A DNA stretch of 64,000 nt from Spirulina sp. (GCA_044070495.1 JBIPSI010000025.1:1-64000); one strand, 5' to 3'. Shown: positions 1 through 27,832, counted from the first letter of the stretch. Notes: generated by a model from the sequence alone, not told the origin. A program made the numbers and translations.

Positions 1-58
1 GTTGTTCTGCCTGGTAGAAATGTTACTGGTTGGGAACACTAAGTCCACTTACCAGGCA

Positions 59-143
59 CACCAACTCTTCGTTGGAGCCGACGAACGCGTTAGCCCGACG
101 ACGCTGGCTAAGCGGCGTTCGCGGCTCAACTTCGTCATTAGCT
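59..143 (+). mobile_element. attC: attC-like integron cassette recombination site (R' core altered)
   Basis: CACCAAC (59-65), 5-nt spacer, GTTGGAGCCGACGAACGC (71-88) pairing with GCGTTCGCGGCTCAAC (115-130) apart from two extrahelical bases (G, A), 6-nt spacer, then ATTAGCT (137-143) where GTTRRRY is expected. Confidence 0.75.
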
Positions 144-194
144 GGCAAACACCTTTCCTCCACATACTTGCTACCTTTTGGAGATGTTAGGGAT

Positions 195-446
195 GTGCAA
201 CTCAAACTCACAGATGAAGAAATGCAAGAAGTTTACAGAATCTCAGTAAATTGCACTGAAAGCGTAGAAAGGTTGTGCCAACGCCTTGAGATGCTGACTT
301 GGGGAGACGGATTGTTGGAATTTAGAATGCAGGCAAGCGTTGGGCTTTTACCTTGGATGGAGCAGCTTCAGGAGTTGAGTAATCAGGTTAACAAGAGGCT
401 TCAGGAAGCCGGAATACCTTTTGGGCCTAGCTTAGAATATTATTAA
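195..446 (+). CDS. small orphan protein (83 aa), probable cassette ORF
   Basis: 3' part of ORF 30..446; GTG at 195 with GGAGA at 180-184; the upstream part of the long ORF overlaps the attC-like site. Confidence 0.5.
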   Translation: MQLKLTDEEMQEVYRISVNCTESVERLCQRLEMLTWGDGLLEFRMQASVGLLPWMEQLQELSNQVNKRLQEAGIPFGPSLEYY

Positions 447-583
447 AAAAATACAGGTAGACAAGAGGCACACAAACTAGATGAATTCTTTTAATACTAA
501 CAAAATGATCAGAAAATAAAGGCATCAACTTCGTAGGCTTTCTCTATTGAGCGAACTGAGTAAAAGTTAAATGGGCAGATCTC

Positions 584-1789
584 ATGAAATCAGAAATAGA
601 GAAAAGGGAAGCTCTTGAGAGATTCGTTATAGATAATAAAAATTTAGAGGAATTAGAGCAGAAAATTTCTAGATTTAATATTTTTGAAGCTATTGGAATG
701 GTTAGACAAGAGATCAAACATTCAAACTTTATCCAATTCTTATTAAGCCCGTCTGAGAAGCATCGCCTTGGAGAACACTTCTTAAAAAATCTACTGATGC
801 AAACTTTACGTAATTCAGAAAATGCGCCATTAAATACCTTGGAGCTTGCTATCTCAAATTTCAATGATGCTGAAGTGAGACGTGAATGGAAAAATATTGA
901 TTTACTTATTTATTCACCAAGTAATCATTTCATTTGCGTCATTGAGAACAAAGTTGATTCTTTGGAAGGTTTCAATCAACTTGACAGATATGAGTCAATC
1001 ATTCAAAAAGAATTTCCTGACTGCCAAAAAGTATTTATCTTCTTGACAAGGGATGGTGTCCCCGCTTCAAGCTCCAGATGGTTATCGCTGAGTTACGCCA
1101 GTATTGCAGATATTTTAGAAAAAATCTGCGAAGAGCAAAAGTCAAGCATTGGCAATGATATTTATGTTTCGATACGTCACTATATTGATTTAATTCGGAG
1201 GCATATCATGAGTGAGTCTGATATAGCACAACTATGTCGGGAAATATATAAACAACACCGACAAGCTATCGATCTGATTTATGAACATCGGCCTGATCTT
1301 AGATCAGATATTGAAGAGATGCTAGGGAATATTATAGAAGAATACTCAGAATCTATGAATCTTGAAAAGGATGGAAGTAATCAGCGATGGATTCGATTTG
1401 CACCTAAAGAATGGGATAACTTGGTTGTCCAAAAATCCTGCTCTGGATGGACAAATAGTAAACGAATCTTGCTTTTTGAGTTTTGGAATGAGCCACAGAG
1501 TCTGGAATTAAGACTAGTTGCTGGCCCTGGAAGCATCCAAGTAAAGCAAGAGATTTATGTAAAGCTTAAAGAAATATCTGTATCAGGAATTAGGAAATGT
1601 AAAATTAGTGAATCAGGATTTAATCAGCTTTGCATTATTCCAGTTCTTGATTCTCTGGACTATGAAGACGGAACCCTCGAAGATATAAAAGAAAAGATTA
1701 AATCGTTCTGGATCAATTATTCTAGTGGCGATATGAAAAAAATCCGCGAGGCCATTTTTAACTCATTTGAACGAAAGCAGATTAGTTGA
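584..1789 (+). CDS. PD-(D/E)XK nuclease superfamily protein (PDDEXK_4-like)
   Basis: FNIFE...EIKHSNFIQFLL, REWKNIDLLI, VIENKV, QLDRY motifs; AT-rich. Confidence 0.8.
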   Translation: MKSEIEKREALERFVIDNKNLEELEQKISRFNIFEAIGMVRQEIKHSNFIQFLLSPSEKHRLGEHFLKNLLMQTLRNSENAPLNTLELAISNFNDAEVRREWKNIDLLIYSPSNHFICVIENKVDSLEGFNQLDRYESIIQKEFPDCQKVFIFLTRDGVPASSSRWLSLSYASIADILEKICEEQKSSIGNDIYVSIRHYIDLIRRHIMSESDIAQLCREIYKQHRQAIDLIYEHRPDLRSDIEEMLGNIIEEYSESMNLEKDGSNQRWIRFAPKEWDNLVVQKSCSGWTNSKRILLFEFWNEPQSLELRLVAGPGSIQVKQEIYVKLKEISVSGIRKCKISESGFNQLCIIPVLDSLDYEDGTLEDIKEKIKSFWINYSSGDMKKIREAIFNSFERKQIS

Positions 1790-1831
1790 TCTATTCTAGA
1801 TTTAGGATCATAGGGATAGGAGATGTAAGAT

Positions 1832-2056
1832 ATGCCAACAGCAATTCAGGAAATTTATAATCATGTTCTCTCTGCTCTATCGCCTGCTGAACGCTTACAA
1901 CTAGCGACTCTGATTCTTAATAGCCTGGTTCAGGCAAATATGTCTGTTATGGATGATAGCGGTACTTGGACAGAGCAAGATCAACTCGATCTAGCTGCTT
2001 TTTCTCTACAGTACGCGGTGTCTGCTTTCCCTGAGGATGAGGAGATTGCTCAGTGA
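1832..2056 (+). CDS. putative antitoxin
   Basis: 74-aa acidic protein overlapping the downstream toxin gene (GTGA). Confidence 0.65.
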   Translation: MPTAIQEIYNHVLSALSPAERLQLATLILNSLVQANMSVMDDSGTWTEQDQLDLAAFSLQYAVSAFPEDEEIAQ

Positions 2057-2394
2057 ATTTTAGCCCAGGCGATATAGTAACGGTTGATTTCCCTGGTGTA
2101 ACAGGTGTTAAACGTCGCCCAGCAGTTGTGCTGTCTTCAACCGAGTATCATTCCATTCGTCCTGATGTCATTATTGGCCTCATCACCTCACAAACAAAAG
2201 GGTTAAGTGTTACAGATTATGTACTTCAGGATTGGCAGACAGCAGGGTTGAGAGTGGCATCTGTTTTCCGCAGCTTTATTGTGACGCTGCCCCGTTCAGC
2301 GAACTTGGTCTTGATTGGGCGATTATCTGACCGGGACTGGAAAGGCGTTAGGACTTGTGTCAAAACTGCTTTAACCGATTTGGATGACTCTTAA
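2053..2394 (+). CDS. PemK/MazF family toxin
   Basis: GDIVTVDFP...KRRPAVVLS, IIGLITSQ, W..AGL...S..R motifs. Confidence 0.85.
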   Translation: MNFSPGDIVTVDFPGVTGVKRRPAVVLSSTEYHSIRPDVIIGLITSQTKGLSVTDYVLQDWQTAGLRVASVFRSFIVTLPRSANLVLIGRLSDRDWKGVRTCVKTALTDLDDS

Positions 2395-2437
2395 TCTTTA
2401 TCGCTTAAAAAAGCATTAGGACTCTCGCTGAACAGCC

Positions 2438-2523
2438 AGCTAACCCTACGTTGGTGCGGACGGTAAAGGGGTTGTCGGTAAGAGTTCAAGGTTAACTGCC
2501 GCCGCACAACTCCACCGTTATGC
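2438..2523 (+). mobile_element. attC: attC-like integron cassette recombination site
   Basis: AGCTAAC (2438-2444), 5-nt spacer, GTTGGTGCGGACGGTA pairing with TGCCGCCGCACAAC apart from extrahelical G and A, 6-nt spacer, GTTATGC (2517-2523). Confidence 0.8.
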
Positions 2524-2625
2524 CACCAGTTCTTGGTTCTGAGGGGCCTTAAAGTTTATTGGTTTGTTGGATCAATTGGCCTCTGCGTGGGGTATGGCCG
2601 TAAATTCATTGATTAGCTAGGGTGA

Positions 2626-3621
2626 TTAACCCCATTTCACAATGGCGGAACCCCAGGTTAGCCCTGCGCCAAAGCCTGCGGTGGCGATGGTGTCGCCCGG
2701 TTTAATGTGGCCAGCGCGTACCGCTTCATCCAGGGCTAGGGGCACCGAGGCGGCGGAGGTGTTGCCGTGTTGGGCCATGTTGCTGATCACCCGTTCACTA
2801 GGCACCTTGAGCCGCTGGGCCACGGCATCGAGGATGCGCTGGTTGGCCTGGTGCATCACCAGCCAGTCGATATCGGCAGTGGTGAGGTTGGCCCGGAACA
2901 GAGCTTTTTCAATGACTTCTGGGACGCGGCTGACGGCAAACTTGTAGACCTCGCGCCCGTTCATGGTGATGGGGGTGAAGGTGCCCTGCTGGATGGTGGT
3001 GCCCTCAGTGAGGGGGGCGGATTGGGCCTGGTAAGGGAGCCGCAGGACGCCGTTCATGGAGCCATCGCTGCATAGCTCAAAGCCCAGCAGGTTGTCCTGT
3101 TCGCTGGCTTTTAACACGACAGCCCCAGCCCCATCGCCAAATAGCACGCAGGTGGTGCGGTCGCTCCAATCTGTCCAGCGGGAGAGCACATCGGCCCCAA
3201 TCACCAGCACCGTTTGGAAAGCGCCGGTACGGAGATATTGGGCGGCAGTAACCAGGGCAAACACAAAGCCCGAACAGGCGGCAGTGAGGTCAAAGGCGAC
3301 GGCACGGCTGGCCCCCAGTTCCGCCTGCACCTGGCAAGCACTGCCAAACAGGTCATCAGGGGTGGAGGTGGCCAGCAGAATCATGTCTACCGATTCTGGG
3401 GCAATCTGGGCCATTTCCAATGCGGCGCGTCCAGCCTGGGCGGCAAGGGAAGCCAGGGATTCCTCTGGGGCGGCAAGGTGGCGTTCGCGGATGCCCGTGC
3501 GGGTGCTGATCCACTCGTCGGTGGTGTCCACAACGCGGCTGAGGTCGTCATTGGTGAGCGTCCCCGGCAGGCGGGCTGAGCCACTGCCTACCAGAGCGAC
3601 ACCGGGCATAAACTTTTCCAC
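2626..3621 (-). CDS. fabH: beta-ketoacyl-ACP synthase III
   Basis: AACSGF, HQAN, GNTSAAS catalytic motifs; downstream of plsX. Confidence 0.97.
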   Translation of the reverse strand: MEKFMPGVALVGSGSARLPGTLTNDDLSRVVDTTDEWISTRTGIRERHLAAPEESLASLAAQAGRAALEMAQIAPESVDMILLATSTPDDLFGSACQVQAELGASRAVAFDLTAACSGFVFALVTAAQYLRTGAFQTVLVIGADVLSRWTDWSDRTTCVLFGDGAGAVVLKASEQDNLLGFELCSDGSMNGVLRLPYQAQSAPLTEGTTIQQGTFTPITMNGREVYKFAVSRVPEVIEKALFRANLTTADIDWLVMHQANQRILDAVAQRLKVPSERVISNMAQHGNTSAASVPLALDEAVRAGHIKPGDTIATAGFGAGLTWGSAIVKWG

Positions 3622-3624
3622 AAG

Positions 3625-4659
3625 CTATTCTCCGTCTGCGGCGGGCATGGCCACCCGCTGATACTGGGCCTGAATGCGGTCTAGGACTTGGTTATCCACG
3701 GCTTCCTTAGCTAGGCGCACGGCATTGAACACCGAGGGAGCTTGGGAACTGCCGTGGCTGATCACCGTGACCCCGGCCACGCCGAGCAGCAAGCCGCCGC
3801 CGTGTTCCGCGTGGTCTACCCGCTGCTTAATCCGGCGCAGGTTGGGCTTGAGGATGGCGGTGCCAATCTTGCCGCGAATGCCCTGGGGCAGTTCTTCCCG
3901 CAAAATTTGCAGCACCGATTCGCCCACCGCCTCGGCAAATTTCAGCAGCACGTTGCCCACAAAGCCGTCGCACACCACCACATCGAACTGGCCCGAAAGA
4001 ATATCGCGCCCCTCGGCATTGCCCGCAAAGGGAATGTTGGGGTTGTCCTGCAAAAGCTGATGGGCCTGGAGAGAAAGCTCGTCGCCCTTGCTGGGTTCTT
4101 CGCCAATGTTGATCAGGCCCACGTTGGGATGTTCGACGCCCAGCACGTAGCGGGAGTAGATGGTGCCCATCATGGCGAACTGCTCTAGGTACTTGGGCCG
4201 ACAGTCCACGTTGGCCCCCACATCCAGAATCAGCACGGATTTGTTGGCGATCACCGTGGGGAACACCGCCCCAATGGCCGGACGATCAATGCCCTTCAGC
4301 CGTCCTAAACGCAGCAACGCCGCCGCCATCGCCGCCCCAGAGTGCCCCGCCGAAACCACCGCATCAGCCCGCTTCTGCTTCACCATGTCCATGGCCACGT
4401 TGATGGAAGCCTGGGGCTTGCGGCGCAGGGCACTGAGGGGTTCCTCATGCATTTCAATGGTGCCTTCGGCAGCCACCAGTTCAATGCCCTGGAGGTGTTC
4501 GGGGCTAGCAACGGAGGCGCGAATTTGATCCAGATCGCCCACCAGGAGCACATCTACGTCTAATTCGGCCTTGGCTCTAATGGCCCCTGCTACGATTTCC
4601 CCAGGGGCATAGTCGCCCCCCATTGCGTCAATGGCAATTCGTGCCCGGTTGAGCCCCAT
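3625..4659 (-). CDS. plsX: phosphate acyltransferase PlsX
   Basis: IAIDAMGGD, LDVGANVDC, VVCDGFVGN. Confidence 0.97.
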   Translation of the reverse strand: MGLNRARIAIDAMGGDYAPGEIVAGAIRAKAELDVDVLLVGDLDQIRASVASPEHLQGIELVAAEGTIEMHEEPLSALRRKPQASINVAMDMVKQKRADAVVSAGHSGAAMAAALLRLGRLKGIDRPAIGAVFPTVIANKSVLILDVGANVDCRPKYLEQFAMMGTIYSRYVLGVEHPNVGLINIGEEPSKGDELSLQAHQLLQDNPNIPFAGNAEGRDILSGQFDVVVCDGFVGNVLLKFAEAVGESVLQILREELPQGIRGKIGTAILKPNLRRIKQRVDHAEHGGGLLLGVAGVTVISHGSSQAPSVFNAVRLAKEAVDNQVLDRIQAQYQRVAMPAADGE

Positions 4660-4707
4660 CTGCTGCATCTCAAAAACCTTAGGAAATTCTAGCAGACTAC
4701 CCTACCG

Positions 4708-5436
4708 CTACTCTTCCCCCGGTTCCACAATCCGCTGGAACAGGTAGCCTGTGCCCCGTGCGGTGAGGATGAGTTCGGGGTTGCTGGGGTCGTCCTCTAG
4801 CTTGGCTCGTAGGCGGGAAATGTGCACGTCCACCACGCGGGTATCCACATGGCGTTCGGGGGTGTAGCCCCACACCTCTTGCAGAATTTCGGAGCGGGAG
4901 AAGGGTTCGCCGGAGCGGCTGACCAGCAGTTCTAGCAGGCTGAATTCCATGCCCGTGAGGCGGATCCGCTCATCGCCCTTGTAGACTTGGCGTTTGTTGG
5001 TGTCGATGCGGATGGTGTTAACGGATATCACGCCAGAGCTAGGAATGCCAGACATTCCGGTTTTATCGACCCGACGCAGCACCGAACGAATGCGGGCCTC
5101 TAGCTCCTTGGGAGAGAAGGGCTTCACCACATAGTCATCCGCGCCCAGTTCCAGACCCGTAATCCGGTCGGCCACGTCGCCTAGGGCGGTGAGCATGATG
5201 ATGGGAATGTCGGACTCTTTGCGGAGTTCTTGGCAGACACCATAGCCGTCCAGCTTGGGCATCATCACATCCAGCACCACCAGGTCGGGGATTTCCTTGC
5301 GGAAGGTGTCGAGGGCTTCCTCCCCATCGGCGGCGGTGACCACGTCATAGCCAATCATGGACAAACGGGTTTCGAGGATGCGGCGAATGCTGGCCTCATC
5401 ATCGACAACGAGAATTTTTTCTTTGTTGCTTTCCAA
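4708..5436 (-). CDS. rpaB: OmpR-family response regulator RpaB (Ycf27)
   Basis: KEKILVVDDEASIRRILETRLSMIGY and WGYTPERHVDTRVVDVHISRLR; TTG start inferred. Confidence 0.95.
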   Translation of the reverse strand: MESNKEKILVVDDEASIRRILETRLSMIGYDVVTAADGEEALDTFRKEIPDLVVLDVMMPKLDGYGVCQELRKESDIPIIMLTALGDVADRITGLELGADDYVVKPFSPKELEARIRSVLRRVDKTGMSGIPSSGVISVNTIRIDTNKRQVYKGDERIRLTGMEFSLLELLVSRSGEPFSRSEILQEVWGYTPERHVDTRVVDVHISRLRAKLEDDPSNPELILTARGTGYLFQRIVEPGEE

Positions 5437-5691
5437 GGTTCTCAAGGCTCCCTACATAACGCCCTATTCTATAAAGAAATCCAACGTTTAATTCGTTGTT
5501 TTGCCAGGTTTATGACGCTGAGCTTCACATCCTAGGCGATTCTATGGTACCCAAGCCGACCCGCCGCAGCCCCCCAACAACCGACTGGGACGACATTCCC
5601 CCTATAATCGCTATTAATCCACGGTTAACAAGCGTAACGGCATCATTTCAAGGTTTTTTAAGGTTTATTGCGCGAAACCAGGGCGTTTGCT

Positions 5692-7224
5692 ATGGCTAAA
5701 TCCCGTTCCATCTTTGTCTGCAACGAGTGCGGGGCCGAGTCCTCTCAATACTATGGCCGCTGCCCGGTATGCGGTAGCTGGAACTCTCTGGTAGAGCAGG
5801 CTTTGCCTGCCAAGGAGTCCGCTTCAGCTCGGTTGCCGGGGGTGTCCCGTGGGCGCAGTGCCACCACCGCTAAAACCACCCAGCAGCCCCGCCTCGCCCT
5901 CACCCTAGCCCAAATTCAAGACCATCCCCAAATGCGCCTACCCTCCGGCTATGGGGAATTGGATCGGGTGCTGGGGGGCGGCATTGTGCCCGGTTCCCTG
6001 GTGCTGCTGGGGGGCGATCCGGGCATTGGTAAATCGACCCTGCTCTTACAAGTGGCGAACCAGTTGGCGGCGCGACAGCGGGTGCTGTACGTGTGTGCGG
6101 AGGAATCGGGGCAGCAGGTGAAGTTGCGCTGGCAGCGGCTTGGGCAGGGGGATGGAAGTGGGGAGTCGGGAGTCGGGAGTCGGGAGTCGGAAAACAAGGC
6201 AAAGGGCAAAGGGCAAAAGGCAAAAAGGGGGGGGAATGCGGATTTGGAGGATTGGGAATCCCCTGGGTTAGAAGCGGTCTCTGGAGGAAAGGGGCAGTTG
6301 TATTTGCTGCCAGAGATTGATTTAGAGACGATTTTGATGGAATTAGAGTCGCTACAGCCGACGGTGGCGATTATCGACAGTATTCAGGCGCTTTACTACG
6401 CTACGCTGACCTCGGCTCCGGGGTCGGTGTCCCAGGTGCGGGAATGCACCTCGGCGCTGATGCAGTTGGCCAAGCGAGCGAATATTTCTCTATTTATTGT
6501 CGGCCACGTCACCAAAGAAGGGGCGATTGCTGGCCCCAAGGTGCTGGAGCATTTGGTGGATACGGTGCTGTACTTCGAGGGGGATCGCTTTGCCAGCCAT
6601 CGCCTGCTGCGGTCGGTGAAAAACCGCTTTGGGGCCACCCACGAACTGGGCGTCTTTGAAATGGTAGATCGGGGGCTGGCGGAAATCAGCAACCCCTCGG
6701 CCCTATTCCTGGGCAATCGCGATGAACAAGTGCCCGGTATCGCCACCATCGTCGCCTGTGAAGGAACGCGGCCCCTGGTCGTAGAACTGCAATCCCTGGT
6801 CAGCCCCACCAGCTACAGTTCGCCGCGCCGGTCTACCACGGGAATTGAGTTCAATCGGCTATTGCAAATTTTGGCGGTGCTCGAAAAGCGGGTGGGCATT
6901 CCGCTATCGAAACTCGATGCCTACGTGGCTTCTTCCGGTGGGCTAACCGTGGCCGAACCCGCTGCGGATTTGGGCGTGGCGATTTCCGTGGTAGCCAGCT
7001 TTCGGGATCGCCTAGTGGATCCAGAGTTGGTACTGATTGGCGAAGTCGGTCTTGGTGGCCAGGTGCGGCCTATTTCTCAGTTGGAATTGCGCCTCAAAGA
7101 AGCCGTCAAACTCGGTTTCAAAAAAGCCATCGTCCCTAAGGGCCAAAACGTGAAGGTGGAGGGACTAACCATTGTAGAAGTGTCGCGGGTGGTGGATGCC
7201 ATTGCCCATGCGCTGAAGGGGTGA
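5692..7224 (+). CDS. radA: DNA repair protein RadA/Sms
   Basis: C4 zinc finger, GDPGIGKSTLLLQ, KNRFG, Lon-like C-terminus; carries a low-complexity insertion. Confidence 0.97.
   Translation: MAKSRSIFVCNECGAESSQYYGRCPVCGSWNSLVEQALPAKESASARLPGVSRGRSATTAKTTQQPRLALTLAQIQDHPQMRLPSGYGELDRVLGGGIVPGSLVLLGGDPGIGKSTLLLQVANQLAARQRVLYVCAEESGQQVKLRWQRLGQGDGSGESGVGSRESENKAKGKGQKAKRGGNADLEDWESPGLEAVSGGKGQLYLLPEIDLETILMELESLQPTVAIIDSIQALYYATLTSAPGSVSQVRECTSALMQLAKRANISLFIVGHVTKEGAIAGPKVLEHLVDTVLYFEGDRFASHRLLRSVKNRFGATHELGVFEMVDRGLAEISNPSALFLGNRDEQVPGIATIVACEGTRPLVVELQSLVSPTSYSSPRRSTTGIEFNRLLQILAVLEKRVGIPLSKLDAYVASSGGLTVAEPAADLGVAISVVASFRDRLVDPELVLIGEVGLGGQVRPISQLELRLKEAVKLGFKKAIVPKGQNVKVEGLTIVEVSRVVDAIAHALKG
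6161..6225. repeat. heptamer tandem repeats (STRR-like) inside radA
   Basis: (GGGAGTC)x4 at 6161-6188 and (ARGGCAA)x4 at 6196-6223. Confidence 0.9.
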
Positions 7225-7245
7225 TGCGGTGAGGGCGTGGGGTTG

Positions 7246-7269
7246 GGGCGCACCGCAGTGTGCCCGTAC
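7246..7269 (-). repeat. REP-like hairpin
   Basis: GGGCGCAC-CGCA-GTGTGCCC followed by GTAC. Confidence 0.55.
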
Positions 7270-7321
7270 GAGGAGCGGGTGGTTTAGAATATGAAGAATT
7301 ATGAATTGCGGAGGTATCGCC

Positions 7322-7594
7322 ATGTCCCCCACCGTTGAAATCTACACTTGGACTTACTGCCCCTTCTGCGTTCGCGCCAAGGCATTGCTAGACCGCAAGG
7401 GCATTGAATACACCGAATACTGCATTGACGGCGATGAAGCCGCCCGCCGCGAGATGGCCAAACGCGCCCATGGTCGCCGTTCCCTACCGCAAATTTTCAT
7501 CAACAATCACCACGTTGGCGGCTGCGACGATCTCCATGCCCTGGAGGCCCAAGGCGGTATTGAGCCTCTGCTGGAAGCGGCCCCTGTGGTTTAG
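7322..7594 (+). CDS. grxC: glutaredoxin 3
   Basis: CPFC active site, SLPQIFI, GGCDDL. Confidence 0.95.
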   Translation: MSPTVEIYTWTYCPFCVRAKALLDRKGIEYTEYCIDGDEAARREMAKRAHGRRSLPQIFINNHHVGGCDDLHALEAQGGIEPLLEAAPVV

Positions 7595-7723
7595 GTGCAT
7601 CCCAAGCTCCGTGGTTAGAGCCGTCATTGTCAGGCGGCTCCCTCCCTGAGCAGGTTGGTTAGAATGTTTACGTTGATGAGATCAATCGCGAAAACACCAT
7701 CGTCACGATGGCAAAAAGCTTCC

Positions 7724-8125
7724 TTAGTCGCTGCGTTCCCTGGGATAATCTCTGACGACAAAAATTGGGCTTTGGGCCTTGGGCTGATTTTGCTTTTGCA
7801 CTCGTATAAGGCGGTTTTCCATTGTGTGCCCTAGGTTTTCTAGGTAATAATGCAGGATCTCAGCCTGCCCTCGGTAGTCGCGGTCTTCTTTGCAGATAAT
7901 GATGCCTCTGTGGAAAGTCCCACTACGGTGCAGCGCTATAAAATCTTGTCGGTTAAGGGTGATGACGCTACGGTAATCGCCCACAGCAAAGGTAAGTACG
8001 TCATGGTCTGGAATATTTTGATTCGCCCGTCCGGCTTCGTAGGAAGTCAGTACATCGTGATGGAGTTGACGTAGAGCTTTCACTAGCTCAATCGGCAGAT
8101 TTTCATTGGAATAAAGCCTAGCCAT
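7724..8125 (-). CDS. DUF5615 PIN-like toxin (VapC45-like)
   Basis: MARLYSNENLP, IPDHDVL, VITLNRQDF, HRGII; overlaps the DUF433 gene. Confidence 0.85.
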   Translation of the reverse strand: MARLYSNENLPIELVKALRQLHHDVLTSYEAGRANQNIPDHDVLTFAVGDYRSVITLNRQDFIALHRSGTFHRGIIICKEDRDYRGQAEILHYYLENLGHTMENRLIRVQKQNQPKAQSPIFVVRDYPRERSD

Positions 8126-27758: not shown

Positions 27759-27832
27759 AGCGGAGACGAAAGTTTCCGTTCACTCCTCACACCACACTCC
27801 GCCTGGGCCTTTGGGTTCAGGCGGTTCCTTTT
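27759..27832 (+). ncRNA. yfr1: Yfr1 small RNA
   Basis: ACTCCTCACAC (27782-27792) between two hairpins; known guaB-trxA position. Confidence 0.92.

Follow-up and report, generated by a model that had tools for sequence, protein, structure and literature searches.

The usual picture of an integron has a single integrase, a single attI site and a single array, and stray arrays are regarded as passive leftovers. According to published accounts, cassette excision by IntI acts on the folded bottom strand of attC and follows a replicative route; insertion is at attI, and excised cassettes can also enter the attI sites of other integrons (PMC12614218, PMC4889954). The closest described systems are the chromosomal integrons and CALINs (Cury et al. 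2016, PMC4889954); in the text of that survey 83% of the CALINs have fewer than six attC sites, integrons are recorded in Cyanobacteria, several integrons per genome are counted in 36 genomes, and it is proposed that CALIN cassettes are mobilised by an integrase located elsewhere. Cassettes of one, two or no ORFs are described in reviews (PMC8618304), and many gene-less cassettes of Vibrionaceae superintegrons are reported to carry promoters (10.1101/2023.11.21.568050). Gene-less cassettes, defence cassettes, decay of intI with extra arrays, and cyanobacterial integrons (PMC8618304) are already in print. A literature search, mostly of open-access main texts, returned no account of cyanobacteria with numerous conserved solo attI sites and none of multiple attI sites loaded in trans, although the genome tables of PMC4889954 may include such genomes.

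The stretch of DNA analysed here, called the window, is 64,000 nucleotides long (G000:C25:1-64000; JBIPSI010000025.1:1-64000), and its base 1 is the first base of contig C25 of the host assembly (G000). Quite probably it opens with a short array, complete from attI to fabH and composed of a 136-bp and a 2,380-bp cassette (Table 1), which would be one of at least seven arrays loaded in trans by a single intact integrase. The attC geometry, the tyrosine recombinase IntI and the short arrays are like those of Cury et al. (PMC4889954). However, in the text of that study attI could not be searched for and distant arrays figure as cassette donors, whereas here the distant arrays keep a conserved attI (seven in the host genome, 14 in its relative G063) and bear sequence signs of receiving cassettes. 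Frequent truncation of intI and extra arrays at other chromosomal loci are also described in Xanthomonas (10.1101/2025.06.18.660453); there, in the text consulted, intI is fixed downstream of ilvD, while here intact intI lies at different loci in the host genome and in G005, and the extra arrays start with attI. The 136-bp unit resembles the gene-less Vibrionaceae cassettes (10.1101/2023.11.21.568050) in having no ORF, but it is multi-copy across loci, takes the first position wherever its context is assembled, and showed no consensus promoter. As in the phage-defence cassettes known as BRiCs (10.1101/2024.07.02.601719), the cargo matches a candidate defence system, here PADLOC PDC-S26, but four genes are combined in one 2.4-kb cassette, the defence candidate together with a toxin-antitoxin (TA) pair. 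A cyanobacterial lineage here keeps 7-14 conserved attI sites around its chromosome.

Table 1. Features at the left end of the window. Positions are counted from its first base; R1 is the covariance model described in the text, and ↓ marks the break within a core motif.
Feature	Position	Strand	Evidence or remark
Probable right half of attI (R box, G↓TT crossover); rest of attI probably beyond the contig edge	1..7	+	Same sequence follows attI on C33, C60 and C17
ORF-less 136-bp mini-cassette (cassette 1)	2..137	+	Unit between attI and attC crossovers; copies on C33, C60, C17 and C43
attC site 1, non-canonical A↓TT core, recombining strand minus	59..143	+	Model R1 28.6 bits, E 5.5e-5
Four-gene cassette (cassette 2), 2,380 bp	138..2517	+	No internal attC; travels as one block
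83-aa gene of unknown function, GTG start	195..446	+	35 homologues, no Pfam
Protein of the PD-(D/E)XK nuclease family, match to candidate anti-phage system PDC-S26	584..1789	+	Pfam PDDEXK_4 E 8e-33
Putative antitoxin, 74 aa, overlaps toxin start	1832..2056	+	Position; weak Unstab_antitox match below cut-off, E 0.018
PemK/MazF-family toxin, probable bacterial type II TA pair	2053..2394	+	Pfam PemK_toxin E 2.8e-11, over cut-off
attC site 2, canonical G↓TT, recombining strand minus	2438..2523	+	Model R1 78.3 bits, E 7e-18
Decayed array tail and spacer to fabH: putative start of a lost cassette and attC-loop-like remnant	2518..2625	+	Resembles cassette starts at C4/C6
fabH (3-oxoacyl-ACP synthase III), flanking core gene	2626..3621	-	Pfam ACP_syn_III and ACP_syn_III_C

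The two attC sites claimed by the first-pass annotation were recovered at exactly its positions, by geometry and by covariance score. In both, AAC is followed by a 5-nt spacer, the left arm carries one additional G and one additional A in the top strand, and a 6-nt spacer precedes the right core, which is ATT in site 1 and GTT in site 2; cores, spacers and imperfect arms agree with the attC definition, in which the arms measure 16-20 nt. A strict geometry scan of the 64-kb window returned two sites, namely these, and among dinucleotide shuffles of 1-2600 one site occurred in 1/2000 and two sites in 0/2000. The covariance-model check that had been proposed was made with our own model, R1, which was trained on 14 attC-like sites from other contigs and from relatives, the window sites and the site-1 family being left out; the training sites were picked by a loose geometry scan of relative loci, the output of which was mostly noise. 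In the R1 alignment 91% of the cells pair and 9 of the 16 pairs changed on both sides, a count inflated by related sequences. Both sites were scored by R1 (Table 1), which genome-wide picked out 20 places among 150 scored candidates (six being training sites) and, with filters off, gave no attC match inside 144-2437. A faint attC remnant near 488-540, seen by eye, was unsupported, and Rfam showed no family over 1-2523. When the bottom strands were folded, all 16 modelled pairs of the recombinogenic fold formed in both sites, exclusively by Watson-Crick pairing in site 2 and with two T-G wobbles, one at the crossover, in site 1. By minimum energy, the bottom strand of site 1 folds well (z -3.3), but that of site 2 does not give the attC hairpin (z +0.55), which speaks against it. 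By their structure both are real integron attC sites, and two such sites by themselves are ordinary.

Recombination of the two sites by IntI is suggested indirectly by unit boundaries that fall at the crossover points. Across 52 R1 matches, the first base of R' was G in 48 and A in three, and two of these three belong to the 136-bp cassette. For IntI1, recombination was reported to fall 1,000-10,000-fold when the two partners differed at the first base, both attC strands being changed in that experiment (PMC2811028); because of this effect and its A↓TT core, the mobility of site 1 is not obvious. The mini-cassette and its A↓TT core would allow a simple recombination test.

The co-oriented, AT-rich ORFs noted earlier between the sites are indeed four ORFs of the same orientation, with 39% GC (138-2517) versus 59% over 2626-8000. 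The two attC sites flank them, and they form one multi-gene cassette, not several. The start of this cassette (138-146) is the exact complement of 2435-2443 at its end, a 9-base stretch that stops just short of the last C of R''. As a single block it was present in metagenome runs from two studies: a contig of run X1 (freshwater by record) matched 144-2520 with 73 differences and only 27 bases of left flank, and one of run X3 (hot spring by record) matched 124-2520 with 148 differences and long, other flanks. In 52 other genomes of the genus the complete cassette did not turn up; seven had parts of it, with no attC match at these seven loci; in G002 its first two genes stand together, again with no attC detected. 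Of the sequencing runs listed, each covered at most 35% of the stretch, and none was of RNA. All homologues of the first gene with a named organism are cyanobacterial, and related copies have ATG at the place of its GTG (G>A at 195 in X1-X3). Its product was predicted as a four-helix model (pLDDT 76), for which no fold match was found and Atlas matches stayed below 0.9; with the query used, the gene was not found in 300 genomes of the phylum. The nuclease matches the PADLOC profile PDC-S26 at full length (E 3e-145, residues 3-394 of 401 aa) and is a candidate defence cargo, its anti-phage role being predicted. The last two genes probably encode a type II TA pair, MazEF/PemIK-like, in agreement with the TA module claimed before: the PemK-family toxin passes the Pfam cut-off and is preceded by a small, overlapping putative antitoxin gene.

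The integron that had been proposed in a cyanobacterium, with an IntI search as a check, is accompanied by one intact integrase gene in the genome (C33:338-1309, 323 aa), which is the sole match over the TIGR02249 cut-off (465.9 bits versus 265). Six other integrase matches are fragments on C28, C60 and C23; the intI of C60 is internally deleted, its middle being missing, and C17 has no intI. On C33 the repeat with which the window begins lies 214 bases before the start of the intact gene, and the DNA between the two has 41-bp direct repeats in three copies and a core whose last bases are A↓GTT. At least seven such attI platforms (C33 twice, C60, C17, C53, C43 and C4), each with two to three 41-bp repeats and a shared core, occur in the genome, a feature that the first-pass annotation had missed. 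Homology among the attI copies ends at GTT and the first cassettes beyond it differ; attI was defined empirically by this shared break. Among 66 loci fetched from relatives there were 48 matches to the crossover pattern, of which 46 were kept and two dropped as implausible. In G063 all 14 loci picked had the crossover, each with a different first cassette, together with two full-length integrases and 26 attC matches; since these 14 loci lie on a single contig, the multiple attI sites are not an assembly artefact. DNA of the attI region was found in 18/24 same-genus and 5/16 other-family genomes (E<=0.001, weak matches included), and IntI over the cut-off in 21/41 genomes. G019 and G050 have several attI sites and no IntI over the cut-off was found in either, so platforms also persist without an integrase, which is a caveat for the loading in trans. 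The conserved attI region, roughly 160 bp, is a search handle absent from current tools. Many first positions would let many cassettes be expressed at once, and they may seed rearrangements.

Several minor observations were made on the platforms. Each 41-bp repeat (e.g., L008:140-265) contains CCTAA and TTAGG in inverted arrangement at a distance of 17 bases; they resemble two half-sites for the integrase set one helical turn further apart than in the core. One such repeat is lost in C43 and in one copy of G018. In G031, which belongs to another family, a platform (L114:5300-5435) is 93% identical over 136 bases to that of the host genome, and this suggests a transfer of the platform itself. 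Remnants of the 5' end of intI are present at both ends of C28 (L143, L144), behind near-identical flanking genes, and at C23:35092-35346; judging from the C28 ends, more platforms are probably hidden in collapsed repeats. At C4:179903-180109 (L135:7904-8110) there is an attC of 207 bp whose loop is unusually long; an insertion seems to have split the site. Two attI copies of G012 (L116:6922, L117:11488) are followed by almost identical first cassettes and may be another example of a cassette shared among platforms.

The cassette of which site 1 is part has no ORF and exists in several copies, which had also escaped the earlier annotation. Besides its own attC this mini-cassette has only about 57 bases; bases 1-16 and 50-65 of the window form a 14/16 inverted repeat, and 1-140 folds with z -5.5. 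The ends of C33 and C60 are identical to 1-124 of the window (0 differences over 124 nt), an internal stretch of C17 is identical to 1-140 (0 over 140 nt), and the C43 copy differs at 12/140 positions (92% identical). The unit stands first behind four of the seven attI sites of the genome. A frame ending in TAA at 40-42, which had been suggested as a previous cassette, is not a gene: in the three existing upstream contexts 14-15 codons are open and a start codon is lacking. The mini-cassette was found in 2/41 genomes and at one locus in the genome-contig collection; six metagenome pattern matches had no BLAST similarity and were taken as chance. A promoter consensus scan of the C17 platform gave one match against 0.6 expected, none in the mini-cassette and none facing the array, and LexA and NtcA boxes did not fit.

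The identity of these copies can be compared with the divergence of the attI sites before them. While the mini-cassettes of C33a, C60 and C17 show 0/124 differences, their attI regions differ at 7/120, 15/119 and 16/119 positions (Fisher p for cassette identity versus attI divergence 0.006, 1.4e-5 and 6e-6, respectively); for the ends of C33a and C60, the overlap of the assembly accounts in part for the identity over 141 nt, and differences between near-identical repeats can be levelled out by assemblers. Identical mini-cassettes behind diverged, partly integrase-less attI sites point to recent loading in trans, and the window would serve as a sequence-level clock of it. In the mechanism proposed, the IntI of C33 would excise cassettes as circles through recombination of folded attC bottom strands, and the circles would be inserted at the G↓TT of any attI copy. 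As the reaction is replicative, a cassette can be copied from platform to platform, which would account for the identical mini-cassettes.

The same pattern could also have arisen if the platforms are relics and the mini-cassettes were made identical by homologous gene conversion, segmental duplication or assembly homogenisation instead of IntI in trans. Such an origin has a low probability in our estimate. The assembly is from short reads, remnants of intI, widely varying in length, lie beside the platforms, several of which (C43, C12, C23) are degenerate, and decay of intI is described as common (PMC4889954, 10.1101/2025.06.18.660453). However, the stretch identical to C17 starts 1 nt ahead of the attI crossover and stops at the attC crossover, and the attI alleles remain distinct to within 2 nt of the crossover. 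Moreover, the attI region is conserved although the flanking intI DNA has decayed, and the first cassette has changed in orthologous truncated platforms: next to one and the same core gene, the platforms of G000, G005 and G019 share one truncation point of intI, yet three different first cassettes follow. As to what lies before base 1, the first-pass annotation took 1-2523 for the tail of an array continuing upstream, which is probably wrong. Window base 1 is most likely the G of an attI crossover, because 1-124 or 1-140 recurs identically right behind attI on C33, C60 and C17; 1-2523 would then most likely be the whole array, head to tail, since every other copy with assembled upstream DNA directly follows attI. 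Neighbouring contigs have 141 bases in common, as is usual in an assembly with k=141. Three ends (C33, C60 and the left side of C17) enter the repeat and only two leave it, and the upstream partner of the window may be C33, with the intact intI, or C60, with the deleted one. The ilvC-like and TPR flanks gave no platform in matched relatives and the fabH neighbours vary, so synteny did not indicate the upstream contig.

It is improbable, given these copies, that a longer array precedes the mini-cassette on an unassembled piece. The window does begin at a contig edge, contigs below 3.1 kb are absent from the assembly, so a missing piece could lie upstream, the numbers of ends entering and leaving the repeat are unbalanced, and the array of G019 at fabH is longer. 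On the other hand, the mini-cassette is directly behind attI in 4/4 other close copies of the genome, no contig ends in attC plus mini-cassette sequence, and the ends of C33 and C60 stop inside the same repeat. A true CALIN, with cassettes inserted by IntI at a secondary (attG-type) site beside fabH and with no attI of its own, is very improbable. Insertion at secondary sites is one proposed origin of CALINs (PMC4889954), and in 15/20 fetched same-genus loci fabH is followed by fabD-plsC instead; but the first bases of the array match the attI-linked copies, and cassettes or attC remnants at fabH are also found in G019 (two attC) and in G067, there as a weak attC behind a degenerate platform-like region. 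The sedentary integron of Cury et al. occupies the same locus in all strains or has >19 attC; the present array, with two attC, does not fit this, one genome per species being compared. The CALIN of that scheme has >=2 attC, the number found here with R1, and no intI nearby. In its workings the array would be like a chromosomal integron, and the name complete integron or CALIN depends on which contig adjoins it upstream.

A further reading concerns the role of the mini-cassette. As a minimal selfish cassette, the 136-bp unit could have been copied by one IntI to the first position of many attI sites and then have plugged them: it would give attI the R box GTTGT and form a terminal hairpin, and its A↓TT core would hamper excision. 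This R box occurs in 0/46 other attI junctions. Mini-like copies of graded identity are known (100%; 92%, C43; 82%, G007; 77%, C12 and its orthologue in G067), all at or near an attI or what is left of one; the platforms of the older copies have decayed, the contexts of the last three being degenerate as judged by eye. With short arrays and a small sample, this reading is kept as an unlikely one: if true, the unit would be a parasite or an off-switch of a distributed, multi-attI integron. As a separate observation, the end of C33, which stops at attC, is continued both by the start of C39 and by that of C23 (L139, L138), with different next cassettes; this fork points either to duplication of a cassette or to alternative arrays in a mixed population.

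The array ends at the GC-rich fabH locus, as had been claimed, with a fabH-family gene next and 59% GC from 2626 to 8000. The comparison of this flank across relatives, also suggested earlier, revealed variable gene content. In the closest relatives (G005, G019, G050 and G067) the neighbour of fabH is different in each: TA-like genes (judged by eye) in G005, a single gene in G050, and the cassettes and remnants given above in G019 and G067. Matches to attC at fabH were found in 1/20 relative loci scanned. Bases 2575-2625 are common to the window and G019, where a degenerate attC adjoins their counterpart. At the G019 locus (L068:2586-2680, 3640-3869, 4476+) the 3' end of fabH is present in three tandem copies, between which small modules resemble TA pairs and a repeat element; these look like repeated insertion at the gene end with duplication. 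In the host genome fabD-plsC lies on C23 (L146:1119-2825), apart from plsX-fabH, although the two are together in 15/20 fetched loci of the genus. Further into the window, short GGGAGTC-type tandem repeats at 5900-6220 run in frame within a radA-like gene. The cyanobacterial host assumed from the beginning is borne out by the Yfr1 small RNA at 27760-27826 (Rfam RF01116, 56.4 bits).
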